Shown here: piece by piece, positions 19,395-46,927 of the stretch
Layout of the letters: each line of letters starts with the position of its first letter
Numbering within the stretch: position 1 is the stretch's first letter
Virus record (IMG/VR): IMGVR_UViG_3300030372_002245
Coordinates: 568-64,567 of that record
Strand: one strand, 5' to 3'
DNA: 64,000 nucleotides
Source: a virus
Lineage: Duplodnaviria > Caudoviricetes
Translations under genes and position numbers: made by a program
The notes under the pieces: generated by a model
The model's input: only the letters and a program-made list of their open reading frames with translations
What the model was told of the DNA's origin: nothing
The model's database searches: none

Positions 19395-19721
19395 GTGACA
19401 GTATATGTTGTACAAGAGGTTCCAGGACGCAATATCGCTTCTGCTAGACAGTATGGAGAGTTTGAGCTACTGCTTCCCTCTAACGCACAAATAATGCTAA
19501 GTGCTTCCCCGTCAGTTCGTAGAATGAAAAAACTTCTGCGAGGTTATACAGAGGAAGATTACTTACTATTAATTGGTGATCCCGCCGCAATAGGTGTTGC
19601 GTGTTCGATTGCCGCTCAATATAACAACGGTCGATATAACATCCTTAAATGGGATCGTCAGGAGGGTGTTTACTACCCTGTTGAAATTGACCTTTATCAG
19701 AAAGGAGAATTAGATGGGTAA
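19395..19721 (+). CDS. Conserved hypothetical protein of the replication module
   Basis: CAGAAAGGAG RBS; GTG start. Confidence 0.7.
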   Translation: MTVYVVQEVPGRNIASARQYGEFELLLPSNAQIMLSASPSVRRMKKLLRGYTEEDYLLLIGDPAAIGVACSIAAQYNNGRYNILKWDRQEGVYYPVEIDLYQKGELDG

Positions 19722-20289
19722 TAAACCTACATTCGAAGAGTTGGTCGGAGCAGATGACGTTCAGGAATGGACGAACGAAGTTTCCGATGGAGAACTCTCA
19801 AAAGTTTCTGTTTTAGCTAACAAACAACTTTTACTCGCGAACGAAGTCGCAGAGCTAGAAGCAAACTTGAAAGCTAAAAAAGAAGAACTTCGTTTGACTT
19901 CGGAGCAAGAACTACCTGATGCTATGCAAGAGGTAGGACTGACCGAGATAATACTCAGCACAGGAGAAAAAATTTCTGTGAAAGAGTTTTATAACGCTCA
20001 CATTTCGAAAGCAAACCAAGCAGTAGCGTACAAATGGCTAGTAGACAACGGACACGAGTCTCTTATAAAGAACGATGTTCTTTTAAAGTTTGACCGTGGA
20101 GAGGCAGAGAAGGTTGATCAAACCGTTTCAGCTTTGAAAGCCCGTGGACTCGCGCCAGAGGTACGTCAGAGTGTTCACCACAGTTCACTGAAAGCCTTCG
20201 TTAAGGAACAGTTTACTGCGGGGAACGATATTCCAACCGAGCCTTTTGGAATCTATATAGGTTCTAAAGCAATTATTAAAAAGGATTGA
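19714..20289 (+). CDS. Conserved hypothetical replication-module protein
   Basis: Coiled coil, then LPDAM...G.K.S, WL..NGH..LIKN and VHHSSLKAFVKE motifs. Confidence 0.65.
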   Translation: MGNKPTFEELVGADDVQEWTNEVSDGELSKVSVLANKQLLLANEVAELEANLKAKKEELRLTSEQELPDAMQEVGLTEIILSTGEKISVKEFYNAHISKANQAVAYKWLVDNGHESLIKNDVLLKFDRGEAEKVDQTVSALKARGLAPEVRQSVHHSSLKAFVKEQFTAGNDIPTEPFGIYIGSKAIIKKD

Positions 20290-20291
20290 TT

Positions 20292-21077
20292 ATGGCAGAA
20301 AAGAAAGAAGTGGCTGAAAAAGAAGCCACAGCAATAACTACGTTTGACGATAGTTTATTGACAGGAGGCACTGGGTTAGAAGATACTACAACTGAGGATT
20401 TCGCAATCCCTTTTATTAGAGTCTTACAACCTACGTCGCCACAACTACAAAAAGCAGATGGAAAACACATTCCTGGAGCAAGTGCAGGTGATCTGTATAA
20501 CACAGTTACCAACGAGCTTTACGATGGAGAGAAAGGTGTTTCTGTTGTTCCGTGCGCGTATAATAAGAAATACATAGAGTGGATTCCTAGAGAAAAAGGT
20601 GGAGGGTTAGTCAACCCTAATCACGACATCTCTATCCTTTCTAAGTGCACAAGAGATGACGAGAGCAGAAGGTTTTATACCCCTGATGGTAATGAGATCG
20701 TAGAAACTGCTCAGTTCTTCATTCTTCTCACAGATCCTTCACCACAACAAGCAGTAGTTGCGTTTACTTCTACTGGTCTTGGTGTGGCTAGAAAGTGGCT
20801 AACAATGTTGAGAATGGCTAGAGTGCAAAATAGCAAAGGAGAAGCAGTAGAAGCTCCTATGTTCGCTTACACTTACAGCCTCAGCACCGTTACGCAATCT
20901 AACGACAAGGGCACGTGGAACAGTTATTCTATTAACCAAGAAGGAGCTACAGACCTAGCTATTGCTAAAATCGCTAAAGATTTTATGTCAGCGGCTAGAT
21001 CGGGCGACGTTGAGGTTAGAGAAGAACAACAGCGTGATGACGCTTCAACTACGTTTGACACAGATGAAGTGATTTAG
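20292..21077 (+). CDS. Putative single-stranded DNA-binding protein
   Basis: DFAIPFIRVLQPTSPQ motif, beta-rich core, acidic C-terminal tail (TTFDTDEVI). Confidence 0.55.
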   Translation: MAEKKEVAEKEATAITTFDDSLLTGGTGLEDTTTEDFAIPFIRVLQPTSPQLQKADGKHIPGASAGDLYNTVTNELYDGEKGVSVVPCAYNKKYIEWIPREKGGGLVNPNHDISILSKCTRDDESRRFYTPDGNEIVETAQFFILLTDPSPQQAVVAFTSTGLGVARKWLTMLRMARVQNSKGEAVEAPMFAYTYSLSTVTQSNDKGTWNSYSINQEGATDLAIAKIAKDFMSAARSGDVEVREEQQRDDASTTFDTDEVI

Positions 21078-21081
21078 TTTC

Positions 21082-22605
21082 ATGTCGTTAGCGGAAAAAT
21101 TTTCTAAGCGATATGCTGGACTACGGAAAGCATACGGAACGTTTACAGCTAACAATGAAACTAGAGAAGATGGCAAGGCAAGTGGTAAAAACATAACGAT
21201 ATCTAAAGAACTTTCTGATAAAGATCTTTTGAAGTTATGGGAAGACCACTTGTCGGGTCAGCAGAGTGTAGGAATTGTTGCAATAGACGAAGACAACAAG
21301 TGTGTCTGGGGCGCTATAGACGTAGATGAGTATCATTTAGATTTAAAAGATTTAGCGATAAAGATCGCAAAACAGAAACTTCCTCTTGTTATTTGTAGGA
21401 GCAAAAGCGGAGGAGCACATATTTATATATTTTTAAAAGAACCTGTTGCAGCATCAATGCTACAAAGAAAGTTAAGACAACTTGCAGCAGCAATCGGGTA
21501 TGGACAGGCGGAGATATTTCCTAAACAAACTCAGCTGTTATTAGAACGAGGAGATCGAGGAAGCACTCTTAATATGCCTTATTTTGGCGGAGAAAATTCT
21601 ACTCGATACGCTTACGGGACAGATGGAAAGGCATTAACACCTGATGATTTTTTAGAGCATTGCGAGTCGATTGCCCTAGAGCCTAAAGCGCTAGAGTCAT
21701 TAGAGGCTAGTCCTTTAACAGAATCTGTACAGTGGCTAGATCAATCGCCGCCTTGTTTACAGCATTTAGTTGTGCAAGGTTTTCCTGAGGGCACTAGAAA
21801 CTCTGGATTATTTAATCTAGGTGTTTTTCTCAGGAAAAAGTTCCCAGACGATTGGGAAAAAAGGCTAGAGAACATGAATATAAAATACATGCAACCGCCT
21901 TTAGGTGCTCAAGAAGTGCTAACCGTTGGTAAACAAGTGCAGAGAAAAGACTATTTCTATAAATGTAATGATCAGCCGATCGCTAGTCATTGCAATAGTC
22001 CTCTATGTCGAACTCGTAAGTTTGGTATAGGAGCAAACGGGGGCACACCTTTGTTTAGTAATTTAACTAAACAGGACAGTGATCCTCCGATTTGGTTTTT
22101 AGATGTAGAGGGTGGTCGACTAGAGTTAGAGACCGACGACCTACTAAACCAAAACAGGTTTCAGCGTAAGTGTATGGACGCTCTAAATAAAATACCACCA
22201 AAGGTTAAAGAAAATGTTTGGCGACAAATTATTCAACAGTTACTTGATGCGCTTACGATTGTAGAGGTTCCTAAAGAAAGTTCTACAGAAGGACATTTTA
22301 TGGAACTGCTCGAGTCGTTCTGCACGGAGAGACCTGCTAGAGAGCGAGACGAGTTATTATTACATAAACCTTGGACAGATAACGGCAAGACTTATTTCAG
22401 ACTCGGTGATCTTATGGAGTATTTACATCGACATAATTTTAAAGAGTATCAAAGAAATAAACTAACGTCCAAGTTAAAACAACTACATGGAGAGCCACAC
22501 TTTTTCAATATAAAAGGTAAGGGTGTGAACGTTTGGTTTATAGAAGAATTTAAAGTTCAAGAAGAACCCCACGATCTCCCAGAATTTAAGGATAATTTAT
22601 TATGA
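21082..22605 (+). CDS. Archaeo-eukaryotic primase (prim-pol) with PriCT-like domain
   Basis: WGAIDVD (DxD), RSKSGGAHIY (motif II His), GTRNSGLFNLG, Cys cluster. Confidence 0.8.
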   Translation: MSLAEKFSKRYAGLRKAYGTFTANNETREDGKASGKNITISKELSDKDLLKLWEDHLSGQQSVGIVAIDEDNKCVWGAIDVDEYHLDLKDLAIKIAKQKLPLVICRSKSGGAHIYIFLKEPVAASMLQRKLRQLAAAIGYGQAEIFPKQTQLLLERGDRGSTLNMPYFGGENSTRYAYGTDGKALTPDDFLEHCESIALEPKALESLEASPLTESVQWLDQSPPCLQHLVVQGFPEGTRNSGLFNLGVFLRKKFPDDWEKRLENMNIKYMQPPLGAQEVLTVGKQVQRKDYFYKCNDQPIASHCNSPLCRTRKFGIGANGGTPLFSNLTKQDSDPPIWFLDVEGGRLELETDDLLNQNRFQRKCMDALNKIPPKVKENVWRQIIQQLLDALTIVEVPKESSTEGHFMELLESFCTERPARERDELLLHKPWTDNGKTYFRLGDLMEYLHRHNFKEYQRNKLTSKLKQLHGEPHFFNIKGKGVNVWFIEEFKVQEEPHDLPEFKDNLL

Positions 22606-23198
22606 GAGAGCTGTGGATTTTTAAGAACGTCTTCCCAGACCAAGCTCCCATTATTCATCAATGGGACGAACCTGAAGAAAGAGAGTTTGACGGAAAGAAA
22701 GTTATGGGTCGACCAACTAGAGGATTTGGTAATGCAACGTTTAAGTATGCAGGCAAAACCTATGAGCCTACTCCCTGGGAGCAGGCACCAGATGTATTAG
22801 ACCTAAAAGTTAAGTCTGAAAAACTTTTAAAAGAGAAGATGGGTAAAGAAATCGAATTTAGTTTTTGTTTATGTGGTTTATATTCTGACGGCGAAACAGC
22901 TATACCTCATCATTCCGACACCGTTCCAACTTTAGAAGACGTTGTAGTGGGTGTTTCTTTCGGCGCTCCTCGAATTTTAGAGTGGACAAAATACGAGTAT
23001 CAGATTAAAAAACACCCCAACACCAGTGAAGTAGATTTACTTTATGATGATAATTTTTTAAGAACGACACCGCATTTATTAGAAGATGGCGATGTATATG
23101 TATTTGATGGTTATTCTCAGATGTATAGCACCCATGCAATCCCCACAATGAAAAAGGTTGGTGCAAGAGTAAATTTCACATTTAGGAGTGGTGTATGA
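22602..23198 (+). CDS. AlkB-like 2OG-Fe(II) dioxygenase
   Basis: HSD (HxD), VSFGAPR, distal HAIP, terminal RVNFTFR. Confidence 0.85.
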   Translation: MRELWIFKNVFPDQAPIIHQWDEPEEREFDGKKVMGRPTRGFGNATFKYAGKTYEPTPWEQAPDVLDLKVKSEKLLKEKMGKEIEFSFCLCGLYSDGETAIPHHSDTVPTLEDVVVGVSFGAPRILEWTKYEYQIKKHPNTSEVDLLYDDNFLRTTPHLLEDGDVYVFDGYSQMYSTHAIPTMKKVGARVNFTFRSGV

Positions 23199-24861: not shown

Positions 24862-24863
24862 AG

Positions 24864-24895
24864 TGCTTTACTTTGTACCCCGTTGTAAATAATAA
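24864..24895 (+). promoter_or_regulatory. Promoter of the modification/PolA operon
   Basis: TGC-TTTACT-17-TAATAA, followed by TAGAAAGGAG RBS. Confidence 0.6.
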
Positions 24896-24928
24896 TATAC
24901 GGGTAACTTGTTTTAGAAAGGAGAAATT

Positions 24929-25420
24929 ATGAACATTTTTTATTTAAGTAAGAGTCCTGACATAGCTGCACAACTACAACCAGATAAGATGTTAGTAAAA
25001 ATGATATTAGAAAGCGCACAGATGTTATGCACAGCGCACCGCGTATTAGATGGCGACGAGTATGCTGACGAGGTCGGTTTATATAAGATCGCATATAAAA
25101 ACCATCCGTGCACAATTTGGACTAGAGAGTGTAGTGGTAACTACTGGTGGCTTTACAAACACTTTTTGGCTCTCGGCAGAGAATACGAGTATCGTTATAA
25201 GAGAACACATCTTAGTATAGGAAAACTTGCAGACGCTCTATACACAATGCCAGAAAACATTACTAGGGGTCTAATGACTCCTGTCGCACAGGCAATGCCT
25301 GATGAATATAAACACGAAAACCCGATAACTGCTTATCGTAATTATGTAGTAAACGAAAAACATTACGCTAAGTGGAGCAACGGCAGAACTAAACCATCAT
25401 GGTGGGAGGCTTCACAATGA
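24929..25420 (+). CDS. Pyrimidine-dimer DNA glycosylase/endonuclease V-like family protein
   Basis: MNIFYL...DKMLVKMILESAQMLCTAH, HPCTIW, QAMPDEYK motifs. Confidence 0.65.
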   Translation: MNIFYLSKSPDIAAQLQPDKMLVKMILESAQMLCTAHRVLDGDEYADEVGLYKIAYKNHPCTIWTRECSGNYWWLYKHFLALGREYEYRYKRTHLSIGKLADALYTMPENITRGLMTPVAQAMPDEYKHENPITAYRNYVVNEKHYAKWSNGRTKPSWWEASQ

Positions 25421-26256
25421 GTTCTATAAGAAGAAAATTAACAGTTAATGAAAACGACAGTAAAAATACACGAATGGATATTGCCAGTGCTGGAGTGTTA
25501 GCCAACTGGCGACCCGATGAACTAGCTCATATGAGCCGTTTTGATAAGATAGCTACTCTTTGTATAGAAGAAGCAAAACGATTAGAGCGACCAATCGATG
25601 GTTTTGAGGTGGGTTGTGGTGAGTGCTGGACACTTCGTAATCTATATAAAGCCTATGTGATAAAGAAATCCGACGTTATACGCTCTTATTATGGCTACGA
25701 TATAGACCCTGCGTGCGAACTAGAAAACCCTTTCTGGTCTAATGCGGGTGGTTTATTAAAGGATTCTACATGGTTTAAGAACTTTAACGGAGAGATACGG
25801 ATCCAAGACCTTACAGTAAACCCTGTGTTCGACCTAGAGGATGAGAGCATAGATTTTTTCTGGTCAACAGAAGTAATAGAACACATGGGTAGAGAGTTTG
25901 TGCCTGCGTGGTTAGATGATGTCGCTAGAGTCATGCGAAAGGGTGCTCTAGGATATGTCTCCACACCTAACCACGACGGGTCTAATGATAAGTTACCAGA
26001 AGACCATGTATATGAGTGGGGCTTTCAGGAGTTAAAAGAAGAATTAGAAAGAAACTTCGTTATTGAGTCGGTAGTTGGTACGTTTATACAAATACCAAAA
26101 CTTCGTAAAGCGCTGAGAGAGGATCCTAACGGGTGGACTCCTGAACAGTATAAGATGATGGAGCAACGCTACGGTAGACAATTTTTAAGAATGACTTCTG
26201 CTGTATTTTATCCAGAAGTCGCTAATAATTGTGCTTGGGTTTTAAGGAAAAAATGA
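25417..26256 (+). CDS. Class I SAM-dependent methyltransferase (small-molecule type)
   Basis: FEVGCG (motif I), GYDID, TEVIEH, STPN; no DPPY/NPPY/PC DNA-methyltransferase motif. Confidence 0.85.
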   Translation: MSSIRRKLTVNENDSKNTRMDIASAGVLANWRPDELAHMSRFDKIATLCIEEAKRLERPIDGFEVGCGECWTLRNLYKAYVIKKSDVIRSYYGYDIDPACELENPFWSNAGGLLKDSTWFKNFNGEIRIQDLTVNPVFDLEDESIDFFWSTEVIEHMGREFVPAWLDDVARVMRKGALGYVSTPNHDGSNDKLPEDHVYEWGFQELKEELERNFVIESVVGTFIQIPKLRKALREDPNGWTPEQYKMMEQRYGRQFLRMTSAVFYPEVANNCAWVLRKK

Positions 26257-27158
26257 CCGAGTTTATAGAAGAAGAATTAGATCGCTACTGCTACTGGCAG
26301 ATAGAGCGAGAGATAATTCGTTGGAAGAAGGAGGAATTAAAAATGCCTGCTCCTTGGACGAAGGATCCTATACTTCAAGAGTTTAAATTCTGCCAAGTCT
26401 TTCGTGAAGATGATCGAACGACACGATGGTTTAAGGCTCATATAAGAGAGCCGATGAGAAATGATCCTAAAGTTTTAATGGCTACGGTTATTTTTAGATG
26501 GTTTAATCTAATAGAAACGGGCAGAACGTTAAAAGAACACGATTTACTTTTAAACTGGGATAGGAAAAAAGCCATAGAAGAAATTACTAAACAGCCCAAG
26601 TGGGTTACAGGAGCATATATTGTTAAAACTCCTAACGGTATGGACAAAGTTACAGGAGTAGCAGAGTGTGTTAGTCATATGTGGAAGGATCGTAATTATT
26701 TAATGGGTGTTTTATTAGAAGATGCTGCTAAAGAAGAAGCCTCGCTAGAAAAGACTTGGCATTTGCTAAGAGATTACCCGTATATGGGACCGTTTATGGC
26801 TTACGAAGTTGTTACAGACCTAAGACACACCTGTTTGTTAGAAAGCGCTACAGATATTATGACATGGGCTAATGCTGGACCAGGAGCGATGAGAGGACTC
26901 AATCGTTTAACAGGTAGAGAGTTAGATTTCGCAAGAAGAAGTCATGATTGGAATAAAGAAATGTGTGATCTTTATGAAGCCGCCGCAACTAGGATAGACT
27001 ACGGCATGTCATCAATAAGAGGACCACACGAGTATGAAATGAGAGAAATAGAGGGAGGGCTTTGTGAGTTCGATAAGTATTCTAGGATATTTAAAAAAGA
27101 AGGACGAACAAGGTCTATTTATAAACACAATGATCTTCCATTAGTAGAAGATTTATGA
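26253..27158 (+). CDS. 5-hmdU DNA kinase helical-domain family (formerly aGPT-Pplase1)
   Basis: WTKDPILQEFKFCQVFREDD, FRWFN, HhH-like GPFMAYEVVTDL, GPGAMRGLNRL, CEFDKY; adjacent to a TS-family gene. Confidence 0.75.
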   Translation: MTEFIEEELDRYCYWQIEREIIRWKKEELKMPAPWTKDPILQEFKFCQVFREDDRTTRWFKAHIREPMRNDPKVLMATVIFRWFNLIETGRTLKEHDLLLNWDRKKAIEEITKQPKWVTGAYIVKTPNGMDKVTGVAECVSHMWKDRNYLMGVLLEDAAKEEASLEKTWHLLRDYPYMGPFMAYEVVTDLRHTCLLESATDIMTWANAGPGAMRGLNRLTGRELDFARRSHDWNKEMCDLYEAAATRIDYGMSSIRGPHEYEMREIEGGLCEFDKYSRIFKKEGRTRSIYKHNDLPLVEDL

Positions 27159-27171
27159 AAGGAGAAAGAAC

Positions 27172-27414
27172 ATGGGTAAAATGAGTGATTATGCAATAGA
27201 ACAATTACAAAAAGAAGTCGGTCTTTTAGAGGATTACGGAGACACGGTTGACATGTATTACACACAATTTATAGAGGTTGCATTTTTTCTTAAAGTTGCT
27301 GCATCAGAAAAGATGGCAGTAGCTTTTATCAAAAGGAAACTGCCCCAACTGCATAAAGAAGATATTCTTTTTATAATAGACGAACTTACAAAAGCCTATC
27401 GAGAGGAGTTATGA
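27172..27414 (+). CDS. Hypothetical protein
   Basis: GAAAGGAG RBS; 80 aa. Confidence 0.65.
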   Translation: MGKMSDYAIEQLQKEVGLLEDYGDTVDMYYTQFIEVAFFLKVAASEKMAVAFIKRKLPQLHKEDILFIIDELTKAYREEL

Positions 27415-28439
27415 AAGTTATACAGGCTAGAAACGTAAACGATGCGTTACTACACGGTATTGATTTATTTAATCAAACGTCACATTATGACGTACAAGAA
27501 AGCCGTAACGGCACAACTTACGAGGCAAATGAACCTGTAACAACGTTTTATGTTCGTCCTTGGGAGCGTGTTTGTCTAATCGAGGAGCGAGACGCTAATC
27601 CGTTTTTTCATTTTATAGAAAGTTTATGGATGCTTTCAGGAAGTAATGAGCTTGAGCCAATAACTTATTATGTAAAATCTATGTCTGATTTTTCAGACGA
27701 TGGTAAAACTTTGTGGGGCGCATATGGTTGGCGGTGGTCTAAATATTTTAATAAAGATCAGTTAGCAATCATCATACAGTTGTTAAAAACTAACCCTGAT
27801 GACCGTAGAGCTGTTTTACAAATGTGGGATCCCATCGGAGATCTTGCCAAGGAGGGTAAGGATGTTCCTTGCAACACGAACATTTATTTCAAGGTTAGAA
27901 AAGGCAGATTAAACATGACGGTCTGTTGTCGTTCTAACGATATGTTATGGGGAGCATACGGAGCAAACGTAGTTCATATGTCGATTTTACAAGAATATGT
28001 GGCAACAATGATTGGAGTTGAGATTGGAGCCTATCGTCAAGTTAGCGATAGCTTTCATGTGTATACAGAAACAGAAGTTTGGCAAAAAGTTAAGCATCTA
28101 AAAATCGATCCGTACAACTACCACTCTTATAGAAACCCTTATGAAGGTTTTGCAGAGGAGTACACACCTACAAAACTTATAACAGACACAACATCATTTC
28201 ACTGGGAACTCGATAGGTTCTTTAGTATTCACCCTAGCGATATGGACATGAACGGTTGGGAAAATCCTGCGTTTAAAGATATCGCTGTACCAATGGCAAT
28301 AGCTTATGCACAACATAAAGAAAAAAATTATTCAGTTTATAAAACAATTCAAGATATCAGACCCGTTGATTGGAAGACAGCATGTTTTAATTGGGTCAAT
28401 AAAAGAGACCACACATACGAAGGAGAAAAAGATGAGTAA
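27411..28439 (+). CDS. Thymidylate synthase-family enzyme, probably dUMP hydroxymethylase
   Basis: Catalytic PC (DVPCN), RSNDMLWGAYGAN with Asn at the dUMP-specificity position, DSFHVY; neighbourhood. Confidence 0.8.
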   Translation: MKVIQARNVNDALLHGIDLFNQTSHYDVQESRNGTTYEANEPVTTFYVRPWERVCLIEERDANPFFHFIESLWMLSGSNELEPITYYVKSMSDFSDDGKTLWGAYGWRWSKYFNKDQLAIIIQLLKTNPDDRRAVLQMWDPIGDLAKEGKDVPCNTNIYFKVRKGRLNMTVCCRSNDMLWGAYGANVVHMSILQEYVATMIGVEIGAYRQVSDSFHVYTETEVWQKVKHLKIDPYNYHSYRNPYEGFAEEYTPTKLITDTTSFHWELDRFFSIHPSDMDMNGWENPAFKDIAVPMAIAYAQHKEKNYSVYKTIQDIRPVDWKTACFNWVNKRDHTYEGEKDE

Positions 28440-28746
28440 GTGGGAAGATATGAGACAGATTGCTCAAGGCGATTTAGAAGCACTTAAAATCGCAGAGGAG
28501 TCTTATGGAGATTCTTGGAAACGTCGTGGAGGTGTAGGTGCTTTCATGATGTTAGCTAGAAAGTTCGACAGAATAGAAAACCAAACTAAAGATCAAGAGT
28601 GGGACATCTTTAAAGCGGGTATCGAATACTCGGGAGAAGATGGTCTTTTAGACGACATTCGAGACTTACGAAGGTATCTACTTTTAGTCGAGCAACAAAT
28701 ATTAAATAAAATAAACCCACCTACAGATGACGAGGAGGACTTATGA
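28432..28746 (+). CDS. Nucleotide-modification-associated helical protein (Nmad1/DUF1599-like, MazG-like fold)
   Basis: SYGDSWKRRG...RKFDRI...LLDDIRDLRRY pattern; follows the TS-like gene. Confidence 0.55.
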   Translation: MSKWEDMRQIAQGDLEALKIAEESYGDSWKRRGGVGAFMMLARKFDRIENQTKDQEWDIFKAGIEYSGEDGLLDDIRDLRRYLLLVEQQILNKINPPTDDEEDL

Positions 28747-29066
28747 AAAGTTATTGGTCACAATTAATACAAGCGATATCAGAAGCAATCTACCCTGAGA
28801 GGAGAGAAGCTCGATTAGCTGAAGAAAGAAAAGAACTAAAAAAGCAACACGCTAAAGAAGCAGAGGTAAAGTTGAAAAAATTTACTCCAGAGGAAGAACC
28901 TGCTGGAGAGGTTTCACTGCCTGCGGATGAGCCTAAAAGAGCCAGAACAGCTAAAGGACGATATAAAGGAGACGATGACTCTACCCCTAACATCAATGAA
29001 GCATGGGTTGGTGGCAAGGCTCCTAAGAAAAAAGCTAAGAAGTCTAAGAAAAAGAAGAAAAAATAG
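28743..29066 (+). CDS. Hypothetical protein with Lys-rich tail
   Basis: RARTAKGRYKGDDDSTPNINEAW motif; poly-K C-terminus. Confidence 0.7.
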   Translation: MKSYWSQLIQAISEAIYPERREARLAEERKELKKQHAKEAEVKLKKFTPEEEPAGEVSLPADEPKRARTAKGRYKGDDDSTPNINEAWVGGKAPKKKAKKSKKKKKK

Positions 29067-30925
29067 TGCTACAACATTCTATGCTAAGTCCTGAGAGTTC
29101 TTGGTCAGTTCCTCCTGTTTTTCCTCAGTTTGGGGAGGATGAAACAGTTGCGGTTGACCTAGAAACCTATGACCCTTACCTCACGACCTGCGGTCCAGGA
29201 TGGGCTACAGGTCGGGGTCATGTGGTTGGCATAGGTGTAGCAACTAAAGACTGGTGCGGTTATTTTCCTATTCGACACGAGGGTGGAGGCAACTTAGATG
29301 AAGATGTTGTTTTACGTTGGTTGAAAAATTTACTTTCTTCTGAAAAGAGAAAGGTTATTTTTCACAACGCACTCTACGATGTTGGTTGGCTACGTCGGGA
29401 AGGGATCGAGATTAAAGGTACTGTATTAGACACCATTATCGCGGCTCCTCTACTCGATGAGAACCGTTTTTCATATTCTTTAGATTCTTTAGGTGAGTTT
29501 TATTGTAACGAAACTAAAGATGAATCGTTATTACAGGATGCAGCACTCGCTTACGGAATCAATCCTAAGTCAGAGATGTATAAATTACCTGCAAAATATG
29601 TTGGACCTTACGGTGAGCAAGACGCAGCACTCACTTTAAAACTTTGGCATAAACTTAAACTAGAAATCGACAGCCAAGACTTAAATAAGATTTTAGAAAT
29701 GGAGTCGAGACTTATTCCGTTGCTTTTAGAAATGCGGTGGAGAGGTGTTCGAGTTGACGAAGACAAAGCGGGTGAGGTAAGTGAAAAACTTTCTAAAGAA
29801 GAACAAAAGATTCAGGTAGAAATCAAACGTAAGTATGGTTCCGATGTAAACCTTTGGGCTAACGCTTCTTTACAGTCTATTTTTGACAACAACGATTTAT
29901 GGTATCCTCGAACAGAAAAAGGCATGGCTAGTTTCCAAAAAGACTGGCTCGAGTCTCACGAACACGAGTTGCCTCAATTAATCGTCAGGGCTCGCAAACT
30001 TAATAAAGCGAGAACGACGTTTATTGATAAGATGATCATGGAACATGCGTTTAATGGTCGCATACACGCAGAGGCACATCCTATGCGTAACGATCGTGGT
30101 GGAACAGTTAGTGGTCGATTTAGTTACAGCAATCCCAATCTACAACAGGTTCCTGCACGTGATCCAGAGATCGGTAATTTAATTCGTTCATTATTTATTC
30201 CAGAAGACAGTTGTCAGTGGGGGGTGTTTGATTATTCCCAACAAGAACCTAGACTTACGGTGCATTACGCTAACCGTATGAACTTATCTGGAGCTAAGTC
30301 AGCGGTTAAAGAATATACTGAAAAGAACGCAGACTTTCACCAGATCGTAGCAGACATGGCTAATATACCCCGTAAACAGGCTAAAATGATTAACTTAGGG
30401 CTTAGTTATGGGATGGGTAAGGAAAAGTTAATTAAAGAACTAGGTCTAGACGATACGGAAGCGGAAAAACTCTTTAAACAATACCACGAAAAGGTTCCGT
30501 TTATCCGTGCTCTGCAAGATCAATGTGCAAGGGTAGCGATGGATCGAGGATACATAAGAACTTTTGCAGGCAGACGCTGTCGGTTCGACCGATGGGAAAG
30601 CCGTTATGAAAAAAGCACACCGCTTCCACTCGAGGAAGCAAAACAAAAATATGGTGAAGACCTAAAAAGGTCATTTACTTATAAAGCGATGAATCGTTTA
30701 ATACAAGGCTCGGCGGCAGACATGACAAAGCTCGCGATGCTCGGACTGTGGGAGGAAGGAATTGTTCCTCATCTACAAGTGCACGATGAAGTTGATATCT
30801 CAGTAGAAAATACAGAACAAGCAAATAAAATAGTGCATATTATGGAGCACTGCGTAGAACTTGCCGTTCCTCTACTGGTTGATAAAGAGTTGGGTAAGTC
30901 GTGGGGTGAAATAGAGGAAGTATAA
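29066..30925 (+). CDS. polA: Family A DNA polymerase with 3'-5' exonuclease (Leu762 type)
   Basis: Exo DLET/HNALYD; motif A DYSQQEPR; motif B RKQAKMINLGLSYG; motif C VHDE. Confidence 0.95.
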   Translation: MLQHSMLSPESSWSVPPVFPQFGEDETVAVDLETYDPYLTTCGPGWATGRGHVVGIGVATKDWCGYFPIRHEGGGNLDEDVVLRWLKNLLSSEKRKVIFHNALYDVGWLRREGIEIKGTVLDTIIAAPLLDENRFSYSLDSLGEFYCNETKDESLLQDAALAYGINPKSEMYKLPAKYVGPYGEQDAALTLKLWHKLKLEIDSQDLNKILEMESRLIPLLLEMRWRGVRVDEDKAGEVSEKLSKEEQKIQVEIKRKYGSDVNLWANASLQSIFDNNDLWYPRTEKGMASFQKDWLESHEHELPQLIVRARKLNKARTTFIDKMIMEHAFNGRIHAEAHPMRNDRGGTVSGRFSYSNPNLQQVPARDPEIGNLIRSLFIPEDSCQWGVFDYSQQEPRLTVHYANRMNLSGAKSAVKEYTEKNADFHQIVADMANIPRKQAKMINLGLSYGMGKEKLIKELGLDDTEAEKLFKQYHEKVPFIRALQDQCARVAMDRGYIRTFAGRRCRFDRWESRYEKSTPLPLEEAKQKYGEDLKRSFTYKAMNRLIQGSAADMTKLAMLGLWEEGIVPHLQVHDEVDISVENTEQANKIVHIMEHCVELAVPLLVDKELGKSWGEIEEV

Positions 30926-30927
30926 TT

Positions 30928-31269
30928 ATGAAAGGAATTTCAGCAGAAAAAGCAAGAGAGAACTCTATCCGATACCGTGAGATTTTCGATCGATGGGTTG
31001 GGGAAGAGATTACACTCGAACAACTCGGAAACGAGTATGGAGTTACAAAACAAAGAATGTGGCAAATCGTTACTCGATGTAAACTTGCCGAGGGCGATTA
31101 TTATCGAGGAGTTAATCTAGCTCGGAACAAATGGACGGAACTCTACTCTACCTATCAAGATTCAGAACAGACTAAACGAGCTTTTAATGAATGGCTTGCG
31201 AGTAAAGAAATCAAAGTTGCCGTAGATAATAAGAAAGCTGCACCGCATACAGGCTGGGATTTAAGCTAA
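30928..31269 (+). CDS. HTH protein resembling sigma70 region 4
   Basis: TLEQLGNEYGVTKQRMWQI resembles sigma70 region 4.2 (TLEEVGKQFDVTRERIRQI). Confidence 0.6.
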   Translation: MKGISAEKARENSIRYREIFDRWVGEEITLEQLGNEYGVTKQRMWQIVTRCKLAEGDYYRGVNLARNKWTELYSTYQDSEQTKRAFNEWLASKEIKVAVDNKKAAPHTGWDLS

Positions 31270-36719: not shown

Positions 36720-36888
36720 TTTTAAAAGATTTAAAATCAGTATGTATATGGACTATGTTTCTAGTCATATGCACAGGGAAGGAGATGGCAACCATCTTAC
36801 TCAAGAGGAGTATTACGAAAAATACGAAGATTTTTTGAAAAGAGAATATAAAGAACATTCTGTGCAAAAACAGGAGAATGTCTCATGA
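36703..36888 (+). CDS. Hypothetical protein
   Basis: 61 aa, overlapped; EYYEKYEDFLKREY. Confidence 0.55.
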   Translation: MKAVIDFKRFKISMYMDYVSSHMHREGDGNHLTQEEYYEKYEDFLKREYKEHSVQKQENVS

Positions 36889-37337
36889 TGGCACACGTTG
36901 AAATTATCGTTAAAGATCAACGACTTAAAGAGTACGGATTGCCGAAGTTTGCGACCACAGGTTCCGCAGGACTAGACCTGCGAGCACTCGAAAGGGTGGA
37001 GCTCGGATCGGGAGACCAACACGCATTTAATCTAGGTTTCGCGATTGCTCTACCTTTCGGGAGTTTTGCTCTACTCGCTCCCAGATCTAGTTTAGGTATT
37101 CGTGGCATTCATCTGGCAAATTTGGTGGGTATTATCGACAGCGATTATCAAGGCGAACTTATTGTTCATTTGAAAAACAACTCTAGGCATCCCGAACCCT
37201 ATATCGTTGAAGAAGGTCAGCGGATTGCTCAACTGCTCGTATTGCAATATCATCCTGTGGTTTGGGAAGTCGTTGATAAATTTAGTTATTCCTCTGAACG
37301 CGGTGAAGGTGGGTTCGGAAGTACGGGTACTCGCTAA
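36885..37337 (+). CDS. dut: Trimeric dUTPase
   Basis: All five motifs: AGLDL, PRSS, GIIDSDYQGE, RIAQL, RGEGGFGSTG. Confidence 0.95.
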   Translation: MMAHVEIIVKDQRLKEYGLPKFATTGSAGLDLRALERVELGSGDQHAFNLGFAIALPFGSFALLAPRSSLGIRGIHLANLVGIIDSDYQGELIVHLKNNSRHPEPYIVEEGQRIAQLLVLQYHPVVWEVVDKFSYSSERGEGGFGSTGTR

Positions 37338-45481: not shown

Positions 45482-46927
45482 ATGGCAACATCCCCTACAG
45501 AGCGTGAGTATTTTCCGCTGCCTGATCCCGAACCACCTAAGTGGTGGCAACTTCGCGAACAGCTTCGTGGAAAACTAAGAGAATCGGAAGTACCTGATTA
45601 TCGAATCGATCAGCTAATTGGTAAAAACCCTGAACAGTTTCAACGTATGAATGAACTTCGTAGAGAAGTCGCACTGCCTCAGGTTACTGGTGTTTCTGCT
45701 ATTCCTCATTCATTAGGCAGTTTAGATGCAGCATTAGGGATTACTTCGGTTCCAGCATTTACAAAAACAATGGGTCAAATGGCTTTGCCCTATGCAGCAA
45801 TGGGATTGGAGTCTGCAACGGGGTTCACAGACATATTAAAAGCAATAAAAGAAGAACCAGAAGATCAGCCAAAAGATTTTGGTTATTATGCTCGAAGAGT
45901 AGGGCTTCCGTTAAGTGGATTAGCTGGCGCGATGGCGATTAATCGTTTTACTCCTGGAAAAAATATAGCAAATAAACTTCCAGAAGAAATTGCAAATGTA
46001 GATAAAACTCGAAGGAATATACTTAAAACTGGCGCGATAGCGGGAGCACTTTCAACAATTCCTCGTCCGCTAACAAGTACCATAAAATACGGGAGTAAAG
46101 CGCCTATTTCCGCTGCTGCAACAAAAAATTATGCAAATATGTTTGGTCCTAATTTAACCAATTCCAGTATTGGTAACAGAATAACAGGTGCTTTTACAGG
46201 TGGTGGAGGCGATATGGCAGTTGCCCCAATATCGAGAAAAAGATTTTTAGATGATGATTTTAATTTAATTTCCGTCGAAGATTCAGTAAAAACAATGAGA
46301 AAACGTCCTGATGGTAGCAAAAGGGTTAGGGACCAAGCGGACCTAGATAACCACGTTAAAGAAATTACTAAAGCATTAGACGATGCTAGTGTTACAGGTG
46401 ATTTAAAGGCTATTTCTCAAAGCGGAAAAGATCATTTTAAAAATTACAATCTAGGTCCTGAAGAAATTCAAATAATTGATTATGAATCGTTTAATCGTCC
46501 AGGTCGTCCTAAGTATAGTCATATCGCAAGGCGATATGACTTAATGTTTGGAGATTATATCCCTATAGAAGACGTAAGAGGCTGGAAGGGGTCTGAAAAA
46601 GTTATTGCTGAAGGAGAAAACCTTAGACAGTTACCTAGAACATCTTCCGATTTTGATTATTGGGAGGAGCTTAATAAATATATCAGAACCAACGGAACGA
46701 AAATGGGTGAAGCAAAACCTCTGACTGATGCGGAAAAGTCTAATCCAGGAGGGGACATATACGATATGGAATATTACGAATTAGACGGAATTCCTGTAGC
46801 ATTAGGAATGTGGAGTAATTATGATGCCATGGTACCTGTAATAATCACTCCAAATACAAAAGGGATGGATACTCTTACGGGAGCTACCATTGACCGTTTA
46901 GCTGAAATTGAATTAGAGGGAATGTAA
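45482..46927 (+). CDS. Large orphan protein (481 aa), possibly virion-associated
   Basis: Long clean ORF; hydrophobic segments; internal TRRNILK motif. Confidence 0.7.
   Translation: MATSPTEREYFPLPDPEPPKWWQLREQLRGKLRESEVPDYRIDQLIGKNPEQFQRMNELRREVALPQVTGVSAIPHSLGSLDAALGITSVPAFTKTMGQMALPYAAMGLESATGFTDILKAIKEEPEDQPKDFGYYARRVGLPLSGLAGAMAINRFTPGKNIANKLPEEIANVDKTRRNILKTGAIAGALSTIPRPLTSTIKYGSKAPISAAATKNYANMFGPNLTNSSIGNRITGAFTGGGGDMAVAPISRKRFLDDDFNLISVEDSVKTMRKRPDGSKRVRDQADLDNHVKEITKALDDASVTGDLKAISQSGKDHFKNYNLGPEEIQIIDYESFNRPGRPKYSHIARRYDLMFGDYIPIEDVRGWKGSEKVIAEGENLRQLPRTSSDFDYWEELNKYIRTNGTKMGEAKPLTDAEKSNPGGDIYDMEYYELDGIPVALGMWSNYDAMVPVIITPNTKGMDTLTGATIDRLAEIELEGM

Follow-up and report, generated by a model that had tools for sequence, protein, structure and literature searches.

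The stretch analysed here, hereafter the window, comprises 64,000 nucleotides (positions 568 to 64,567) of the IMG/VR virus record IMGVR_UViG_3300030372_002245, which is nearly all of a 64,567-bp record with a CheckV completeness of 100%. Nearly all genes of the window lie on the + strand. Between the genes for a helicase and a family A DNA polymerase (PolA), a compact run of genes encodes a pyrimidine-dimer glycosylase-like protein, a Hen1-like class I S-adenosylmethionine (SAM)-dependent methyltransferase (MTase), a protein of clade 1 of the aGPT-Pplase family (HMUDK_hel, PF18723), a thymidylate synthase (TS)-family enzyme and three small proteins (Table 1). The part of this run from the MTase gene to the conserved small gene behind the TS homolog (25417-28746) may be a self-contained DNA-modification cassette in an abundant, uncultured marine phage of the HTVC023P type.

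The genes are as tightly packed and overlapping as originally predicted. The open reading frame (ORF) lister begins the MTase at 25399 and the PF18723 protein at a TTG codon at 26229; the true starts of these two genes and of the conserved small gene are most likely 25417, 26253 and 28432, each of which is served by a GGAG-type ribosome-binding site and forms an ATGA-type overlap with the stop codon of the gene before it. The polymerase gene was also correctly placed. The glycosylase-like gene is present as described, although it is not a core part of the group, being absent from about half of the related loci. The single promoter said to drive the operon from 24864 fared less well: the site is only a partial match to the consensus, and such matches are no more frequent in the region than in shuffled sequence, so that a promoter at this position is plausible but unproven.

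Table 1. Features of the putative modification locus and the dUTPase gene in the window
Feature	Position	Strand	Evidence and remarks
Promoter-like site TTTACT, 18 nt, AATAAT	24867..24896	+	9/12 consensus; in the 67-nt gap 3' of the helicase gene
Pyrimidine-dimer glycosylase-like protein, 163 aa	24929..25420	+	Pyr_excise PF03013, E 5.6e-8; phrog_624, E 1.6e-54
Hen1-like class I SAM-dependent MTase, 279 aa (P0004)	25417..26256	+	PF13489/PF08241
aGPT-Pplase clade-1 / HMUDK_hel protein, 301 aa from ATG 26253	26253..27158	+	PF18723, E 2.4e-42
Small protein, 80 aa	27172..27414	+	in ~60% of related loci
TS-family enzyme, predicted dUMP 5-hydroxymethylase, 342 aa	27411..28439	+	PF00303, E 6e-22; phrog_5131, E 5e-113
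Conserved small protein, 104 aa from ATG 28432	28432..28746	+	in all related loci reaching this position, 50-96% identity
Small protein, 107 aa, lysine-rich tail	28743..29066	+	poorly conserved
Family A DNA polymerase with 3'-5' exonuclease domain	29066..30925	+	PF00476, E 1.5e-62; PF01612, E 3e-13
dUTPase	36885..37337	+	PF00692, E 1e-23

Judged from DNA polymerase similarity, the nearest cultured relatives of the window phage are HTVC023P-type pelagiphages, with PolA identities of 55% to 023Pt_psg01 and 48% to both HTVC023P and HTVC027P. No match to the region was found by megablast among 50,697 phage records, nor to the 481-aa protein encoded at 45482-46927 when the same records were searched by tblastn. 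The replication modules of HTVC023P (L176) and 023Pt_psg01 (L177) consist of primase, helicase, one or two small ORFs and PolA, without the cassette genes, whereas the window lineage carries ~4 kb of extra genes exactly between helicase and PolA. Relative to these two phages, the modification block (window 24862-29065) is an insertion, an arrangement consistent with joint acquisition of the genes for the MTase, the PF18723 protein and the hydroxymethylase as a functional unit. The MTase is among the best conserved genes of the lineage, being 64-100% identical across 119 IMG/VR stretches. In 80 related IMG/VR loci (clade A), in which gene order was judged as far as each contig reaches, the order MTase, PF18723, TS homolog, small protein and PolA is kept in every case, with the MTase again at 64-100% identity in all 80. 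Of 15 loci checked, 14 show an overlap of 1-31 nt between the MTase gene and the PF18723 gene.

The TS-family enzyme would place the cassette in the chemistry of thymidine modification. It is homologous over its full length to the enzymes of M6/YuA (44% identity) and of PaMx11 and PhiJL001 (41-44%), and shares with them a C-terminal extension of ~110 residues. Its best solved relative is the cytidine monophosphate (CMP) hydroxymethylase MilA (E 3e-26), true TS enzymes following at ~1e-13, and it falls far below all NCBIfam TS equivalog cut-offs (95 bits against 174 bits, or worse). Cys154 aligns with the catalytic Cys of TS, and the specificity Asn in RSNDMLWGAYGAN aligns with the Asn of TS, in contrast to the Asp found at this position in MilA and in the homologs of AXL3-type phages. 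The assignment of a TS-family enzyme with the Asn that specifies deoxyuridine monophosphate (dUMP) thus stands, and the protein is closer to hydroxymethylases than to thymidylate synthases; a uracil-specific dUMP hydroxymethylase is the best reading of these comparisons. A thymidine-modification-type cassette, as had been proposed, is supported.

None of the enzymes that complete known hypermodification pathways was recognisable in the genome, in agreement with the original prediction. PF18724, the family of the amino-acid:DNA transferase (AADT), gave no match at E <= 10, and tblastn with M6 gp51 and PaMx11 gp46 was likewise negative, as was a search of the genome for Nmad5. A Pfam pass over the other 73 ORFs identified the dUTPase, an SNF2 helicase, a nuclease, GroES and structural proteins; in this 100%-complete record it returned no pyridoxal-phosphate (PLP) enzyme, radical SAM, flavin adenine dinucleotide (FAD)-dependent enzyme, acetyltransferase or glycosyltransferase.

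The protein encoded at 26253, which had been taken for a 5-hydroxymethyl-2'-deoxyuridine (5-hmdU) DNA kinase-type enzyme, is by homology an aGPT-Pplase clade-1 / HMUDK_hel protein and not the proven P-loop 5-hmdU DNA kinase. Its match covers positions 4-277 of the 281-position PF18723 profile, and it is 37% identical to M6 gp55 and 42% to PaMx11 gp50, with PhiJL001 gp19 falling within 37-42%. The Pfam name of PF18723 is '5-hmdU DNA kinase, helical domain', but the proven kinase is the P-loop protein M6 gp54 / PaMx11 gp49 (PMC8989533, Table 1), and M6 gp55 is dispensable for the formation of N-alpha-glycinylthymidine (PMC8989533). M6 gp54 matches PF18748, whereas gp186 of Bacillus phage SP10 combines PF18748 (residues 35-193) with PF18723 (residues 313-598), and gp186 retains kinase activity after a C-terminal deletion that leaves what is described as 'the kinase domain alone' (PMC8989533). 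PF18748 matched nothing in the whole record, not even at E <= 10; tblastn searches of the window genome with M6 gp54 and PaMx11 gp49 yielded no significant hit, and outside the helicase the genome has no Walker A motif. The MTase had been placed where an AADT is expected, upstream of a kinase; it occupies instead the position that the kinase holds in M6, PaMx11 and SP10, and is coupled to the PF18723 gene.

Other contexts of PF18723 bear on its probable role. No solved relative of the protein was found at E 1, and its predicted fold is DNA-glycosylase-like, with an invariant Cys-Glu pair; the PWT, GPG and C-E..K-Y motifs are invariant in the family, the last of them in every member examined, SP10 and bacterial fusions included. 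In an Actinacidiphila chromosome, PF18723 is fused to a TylF-type O-methyltransferase (P0394, L174:8001-10055; MTase at residues 143-294, PF18723 at 344-623). Together, the SP10 kinase fusion and the TylF fusion show PF18723 beside enzymes predicted to derivatise the hydroxymethyl group. Some phages have the clade-1 protein and no detected kinase: RP13, of the SP15-like phage group, encodes aGPT-Pplase I without a detectable kinase, and YerA41 of the same group carries glycosylated T (PMC13697223), while in PhiJL001 PF18723 adjoins a glucosyltransferase and no kinase was found among the neighbouring genes scanned. Three further proteins (P0393, P0395 and P0396) have PF18723 fused to a family A DNA polymerase and to MazG and MazG_C nucleotide pyrophosphohydrolase domains. 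The P0394 gene adjoins a MazG_C gene, and its NCBI name, 'nucleotide kinase domain-containing protein', apparently derives from the Pfam label.

The MTase is the conserved and distinctive component of the cassette, and its assignment to the class I SAM methyltransferases holds. Its family is small and mostly viral: when 1.84 billion cluster representatives were searched exhaustively with phmmer, just 219 relatives were found at E <= 1e-3. Neither the MTase nor the PF18723 protein nor any of the small proteins is covered by an NCBIfam model, and the single MTase sequence had no phmmer match in the PDB at E 0.01. An alignment of 42 diverse members has G66, E155, H156, H197 and G221 invariant and H38, C67, G68, Y91, D95, D131, D146, E152, T183, P184 and E200 near-invariant, with E152 kept in at least 90% of family members. 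The family profile matches phosphoethanolamine N-methyltransferase, human HENMT1 and bacterial Hen1 at E 1e-9 to 1e-10, and its EVIEH, STPN and H-x-Y-E-W motifs align with the corresponding Hen1 motifs. In addition to SAM-binding motif I (VGCG), the protein carries the Hen1-type metal-ligand signature, with ExxEH and a His after strand 5. Residues E152, E155, H156 and H197 align with E132, E135, H136 and H181 of HENMT1 (counted along the 4xcx chain), the four metal ligands equivalent to E796, E799, H800 and H860 of plant HEN1 (PMC10781085). The two short helices bearing these ligands are a HEN1 feature not found in other RNA and DNA methyltransferases (PMC10781085). Because the HEN1/HENMT1 metal ligands are conserved, the comparison argues for a metal-dependent O-methyltransferase, in which the metal would hold the hydroxyl of the substrate.

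Structural comparison is less specific. An alignment-based AlphaFold2 (AF2) model (pLDDT 94) was used in place of a single-sequence model, which reached a pLDDT of only 35. Foldseek and VIA-align placed CmoM, cap N7-methyltransferase, METTL6, RebM and HEN1 at similar scores, and therefore the fold alone names no substrate. A canonical anti-restriction DNA methyltransferase was considered and rejected: the protein lacks a (D/N/S)PP(Y/F/W) or P-C-Q motif and has STEVIEH at the motif IV position, and motifs of amino- and C5-methyltransferases are missing from its family as a whole. Pfam gave no DNA methyltransferase match, and the structural neighbours are small-molecule and RNA methyltransferases.

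Relatives of the MTase occur in two further genomic settings. Clade B was examined in five loci of a narrower homolog set and the gene table of one contig (P0127). Its MTases are 32-58% identical among themselves and ~35-39% identical to that of the window, and they sit within full hypermodification clusters. One cluster comprises PF18723, a TS homolog with Asn, ADDT, the MTase, a DSP-type phosphatase and a PF18748 kinase; a second comprises PF18723, an inositol-1-phosphate-synthase-like protein, the MTase, a phosphatase and a kinase. A third (L171:2442-6759) has ADDT, a GFO/IDH/MocA oxidoreductase, a DegT aminotransferase and the MTase, and a fourth (L172:4453-8127) has ADDT, the MTase and a TS homolog with Asp (cytosine type). 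The clade B kinases exceed the score threshold of the 5-hmdU kinase family. Some of these loci merit comment in their own right. At L169:2666-7894 and L170:3944-8862, kinase and phosphatase stand together in one hypermodification cluster, the third cluster has the appearance of a pathway that makes an amino-sugar-type donor for a DNA transferase, and the fourth hints at amino-acid-type hypermodification of cytosine rather than thymine.

Clade C is more distant (26-28% identity) and is represented in GenBank by just four phage records, namely Stenotrophomonas phage AXL3 (twice), PW916 and the Manatee Spring podovirus, in each of which the MTase adjoins a TS-family gene. A TS homolog lies near the MTase in 61 of 80 IMG/VR loci of this clade, and the usual order is MTase, MazG-like pyrophosphatase, deoxynucleoside monophosphate (dNMP) kinase, TS homolog, deoxycytidine monophosphate (dCMP) deaminase and PolA. 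The TS homologs of clade C carry Asp at the specificity position. The DNA of AXL3 is cut by TasI and Tru1I, whose sites contain A/T only, but is resistant to 35 restriction enzymes that recognise sites containing G/C (PMC7504290). In all, MTase and TS genes are linked in three architectures and more than 140 loci. A TS-family enzyme, predicted to be a hydroxymethylase of either base specificity, is the sole element common to all three settings.

Taken together, these observations indicate that the MTase is likely the tailoring enzyme of a 5-hydroxymethylpyrimidine DNA modification whose product has not been described. By homology to M6-type phages, the phage dUTPase would likely supply dUMP to the TS homolog for conversion to 5-hydroxymethyl-dUMP, host kinases would make the 5-hydroxymethyl-dUTP, and the phage PolA would build 5-hmdU into the DNA, replacing at least some of the thymidine. 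The PF18723 protein, whose partner is a P-loop kinase in M6, PaMx11 and SP10 and a methyltransferase here, probably recognises the 5-hydroxymethyluracil (hmU) base on DNA or flips it out for the partner enzyme. The Hen1-like MTase, dependent on a divalent metal, would then methylate the 5-hydroxymethyl oxygen from SAM to give 5-methoxymethyl-2'-deoxyuridine, with neither a kinase nor an AADT taking part. The methylation step is proposed from motif conservation, gene coupling, the PF18723 fusions and the threefold genomic context. To this complete explanation, comprising the cassette, hmU incorporation, O-methylation and presentation of the base by PF18723, we assign a probability of roughly 0.4, and 5-methoxymethyl-dU as the specific product is put forward tentatively. 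A broader and more speculative extension is that Hen1-derived O-methyltransferases make 5-methoxymethyluracil here and 5-methoxymethylcytosine in AXL3-type phages, with PF18723 as a general presenting module for kinases, glycosyltransferases and methyltransferases. Of the undescribed T modification suggested in the original prediction, the conserved MTase does point to an undescribed base, for which methylated hmU is the best guess, whereas the phospho-hmU variant has no enzymatic basis in this genome. An incomplete literature search found no report of natural methoxymethyl-uracil, -cytosine or -uridine in DNA, which is weak evidence of novelty, and no description of this MTase family in hypermodification clusters.

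Several points weigh against this explanation. The product is a deduction, and the M6-type TS homologs have been called hydroxymethylases from phage chemistry rather than by direct assay of the clade. The fold of the MTase matches generic class I small-molecule and RNA methyltransferases (CmoM at Z 17.9, HEN1 at Z 15.8) with no discriminating best match, and UbiG-type enzymes also have part of the ExxEH...H motif. No enzyme degrading thymidine triphosphate (dTTP) or thymidine monophosphate (dTMP) was found in the genome, which yielded no HD or MazG match, and replacement of T may therefore be partial. In the clusters that combine ADDT with sugar or amino-acid enzymes, the MTase may methylate an appended group and not hmU, so that the substrate may differ between clades.

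The gene content of the AXL3-type loci bears on the timing of methylation. There the MTase gene comes first in an operon of nucleotide metabolism, ahead of genes for MazG, a dNMP kinase, the TS-like enzyme and a dCMP deaminase, in which neither PF18723 nor any other DNA-level enzyme occurs, and this also counts against the proposed order of events, since it fits action on free nucleotides. An alternative is accordingly that the MTase acts before replication, converting 5-hydroxymethyl-dUMP to 5-methoxymethyl-dUMP, which is then phosphorylated and incorporated, while PF18723 has a separate role. The small-molecule type of the MTase fold and the fusion of PF18723 to MazG-type nucleotide pyrophosphohydrolases in some proteins are consistent with this route. 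However, the window genome encodes no dNMP kinase, so that host enzymes would have to accept the bulkier nucleotide, and the tailoring of hmU and 5-hydroxymethylcytosine (hmC) characterised to date is all post-replicative (PMC8989533). We consider this alternative improbable, although it is the one that survives best.

The main uncertainty of the proposed model concerns the PF18723 protein, which may be catalytic with a chemistry of its own rather than a passive adaptor. Its C-E..K-Y motif, a Cys-Glu..Lys-Tyr arrangement kept throughout the family, has Cys and Glu at residues 279 and 280 of the window protein, counted from the 26229 start. The motif gives a weak local alignment (hhalign E 0.087) to the ExE..LC region of M6 gp51, a clade-2 transferase in which the Cys and a nearby Glu are essential (PMC8989533). 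Under such a scheme PF18723 would be a group-transfer enzyme whose Cys attacks C6 and installs a nucleophile without prior phosphorylation, the MTase methylating the appended group; alternatively, PF18723 would reduce hmU to thymine. The company of the clade B MTases, which includes ADDT and sugar or amino-group enzymes, would agree with methylation of an appended group. Against it, the window genome has neither a donor-making enzyme nor a kinase, none of the steps reconstituted in vitro required M6 gp55, the alignment between clades 1 and 2 has little statistical weight, and AXL3-type phages have the MTase without any Pplase. A transferase role for PF18723 thus appears unlikely.

It is also conceivable that the linkage is incidental, the TS homolog making dTMP or plain hmU DNA and the MTase being a Hen1-like RNA 3'-end 2'-O-methyltransferase, active in RNA repair or against ribotoxins, or acting on another component of the cell. 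All four Hen1 metal ligands are conserved, and the pairing of bacterial Hen1 with the kinase-phosphatase Pnkp resembles the clade B order of MTase, phosphatase and kinase. Yet the window MTase is a single 279-aa domain without an RNA-binding or Pnkp-interacting Hen1 N-terminal domain, no Pnkp or RNA ligase is encoded in the genome, the clade B kinases belong by score to the 5-hmdU kinase family and lie among ADDT, PF18723 and TS genes, and the MTase-TS linkage recurs in three unrelated architectures. Coincidence is thus a very unlikely explanation. Least probable of all is the route of the original prediction, in which phosphorylation of hmU is followed by methylation of the phosphate, or of a phospho-derivative, by the MTase: the Pfam label of the neighbouring gene and the adjacency, in other phages, of a 39%-identical MTase to a phosphatase and a PF18748 kinase speak for it, but it is unsupported here because kinase activity resides in the P-loop domain PF18748, and the genome has no such kinase, no AADT and no other tailoring enzyme.

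Methylation of hmU on DNA by the coupled MTase remains the preferred reading. Among the remaining genes of the locus, the 80-aa protein had no match in Pfam, PHROG or NCBIfam, and the 107-aa protein had no family match in Pfam or PHROG; the latter ends in a run of lysines (KKKAKKSKKKKKK) and may bind nucleic acid. For the 104-aa protein, the nearest ESM Atlas cluster, which is viral, scores 0.97 and includes DUF1599 in 11% of its members. Neither Pfam nor a direct search of the genome with PF07659 (DUF1599) gave a hidden Markov model match, so that the earlier description of this protein as 'Nmad1-like', DUF1599 being the family known as 'Nmad1', is left as a lead from the language model. It is possibly a distant DUF1599 relative.

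Outside the block, an AlkB-like 2-oxoglutarate-Fe(II) oxygenase (PF13532, E 1.4e-16) is encoded at 22602-23198 (+), with the primase gene on one side and the helicase gene on the other. Most related loci, though not all, have this oxygenase, mostly at 45-55% identity and at 94% in the closest; it could repair stray methylation or join in base chemistry. Directly 3' of PolA, at 30928-31269 (+), lies a gene for a small Mor/sigma-70 region 4-like protein, which may be a late-transcription activator. In addition, two proteins encoded at 19714-21077 (+) match Pfam families named for cyanophage Pam3 gp33 and gp34, another ORF of the window matches the Pam3 gp32 family, and further ORFs match the SU10 adaptor and Cpn10 (GroES).

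The cassette is found in more than 100 marine viral contigs, and members of the MTase family accompany pyrimidine hydroxymethylases in no fewer than three types of cluster. If the explanation is true, a simple new DNA base, an O-methylated hydroxymethylpyrimidine, joins the phage repertoire, and the orphan clade-1 aGPT-Pplase protein of M6, PaMx11 and ViI gains a role. The MTase would also represent a small SAM-dependent enzyme for chemistry at 5hmU and 5hmC sites, which would be of interest for epigenetic sequencing tools. The analysis further corrects a misleading database label, under which 'HMUDK_hel' proteins receive annotations as nucleotide kinases. Because the phages AXL3 and PW916 have been cultured, the system is accessible to direct test.

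To our knowledge, every thymidine hypermodification pathway worked out so far begins with a DNA kinase and an AADT. Among the characterised systems, those of the Pseudomonas phages M6/YuA and PaMx11 (PMC8989533) are close to the window cassette, sharing a TS-family enzyme homologous over its full length and a clade-1 protein, both encoded a short way upstream of PolA. They also share its logic, in which 5-hmdU is first incorporated and afterwards tailored on the DNA. They differ in having the P-loop 5-hmdU kinase, AADT, PLP, radical SAM, FAD and acetyltransferase enzymes, Nmad5 and an HD hydrolase, none of which is found in the window, and in M6 and PaMx11 the kinase takes the position, directly upstream of the clade-1 gene, that the Hen1-like MTase has here. 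SP10 gp186 resembles the window pair in that PF18723 is physically joined to an enzyme derivatising the hydroxymethyl oxygen of hmU; its partner, however, is a PF18748 kinase domain active on its own, whereas in the window the partner is a separate, translationally coupled MTase.

With HEN1, HENMT1 and bacterial Hen1, the MTase shares the class I SAM fold, the ExxEH and H-x-[YF]-E-W metal-ligand motifs and the STPN motif, but the match is at profile level (E ~1e-9), and the window enzyme has no double-stranded-RNA-binding or N-terminal domain, no accompanying Pnkp and a DNA base modification context. The AXL3 gp31, PW916 and Manatee Spring podovirus enzymes belong to the same MTase family, with all signature residues, and adjoin a TS-family gene; they differ in the cytosine-type Asp of that TS homolog, the nucleotide-level operon and the lack of PF18723. 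Also similar are the kinase-less clade-1 phages, namely RP13, with YerA41 and SP-15 of its group, and PhiJL001, in which a clade-1 protein and a TS homolog occur with no kinase detected among the genes examined. There, too, a transferase that would act on the hydroxyl is present, but it is a glycosyltransferase yielding a sugar product, whereas the window encodes a SAM-dependent MTase. On the sequence evidence, the system is thus a kinase-less and AADT-less variant of hydroxymethylpyrimidine hypermodification, defined by the Hen1-like MTase family.

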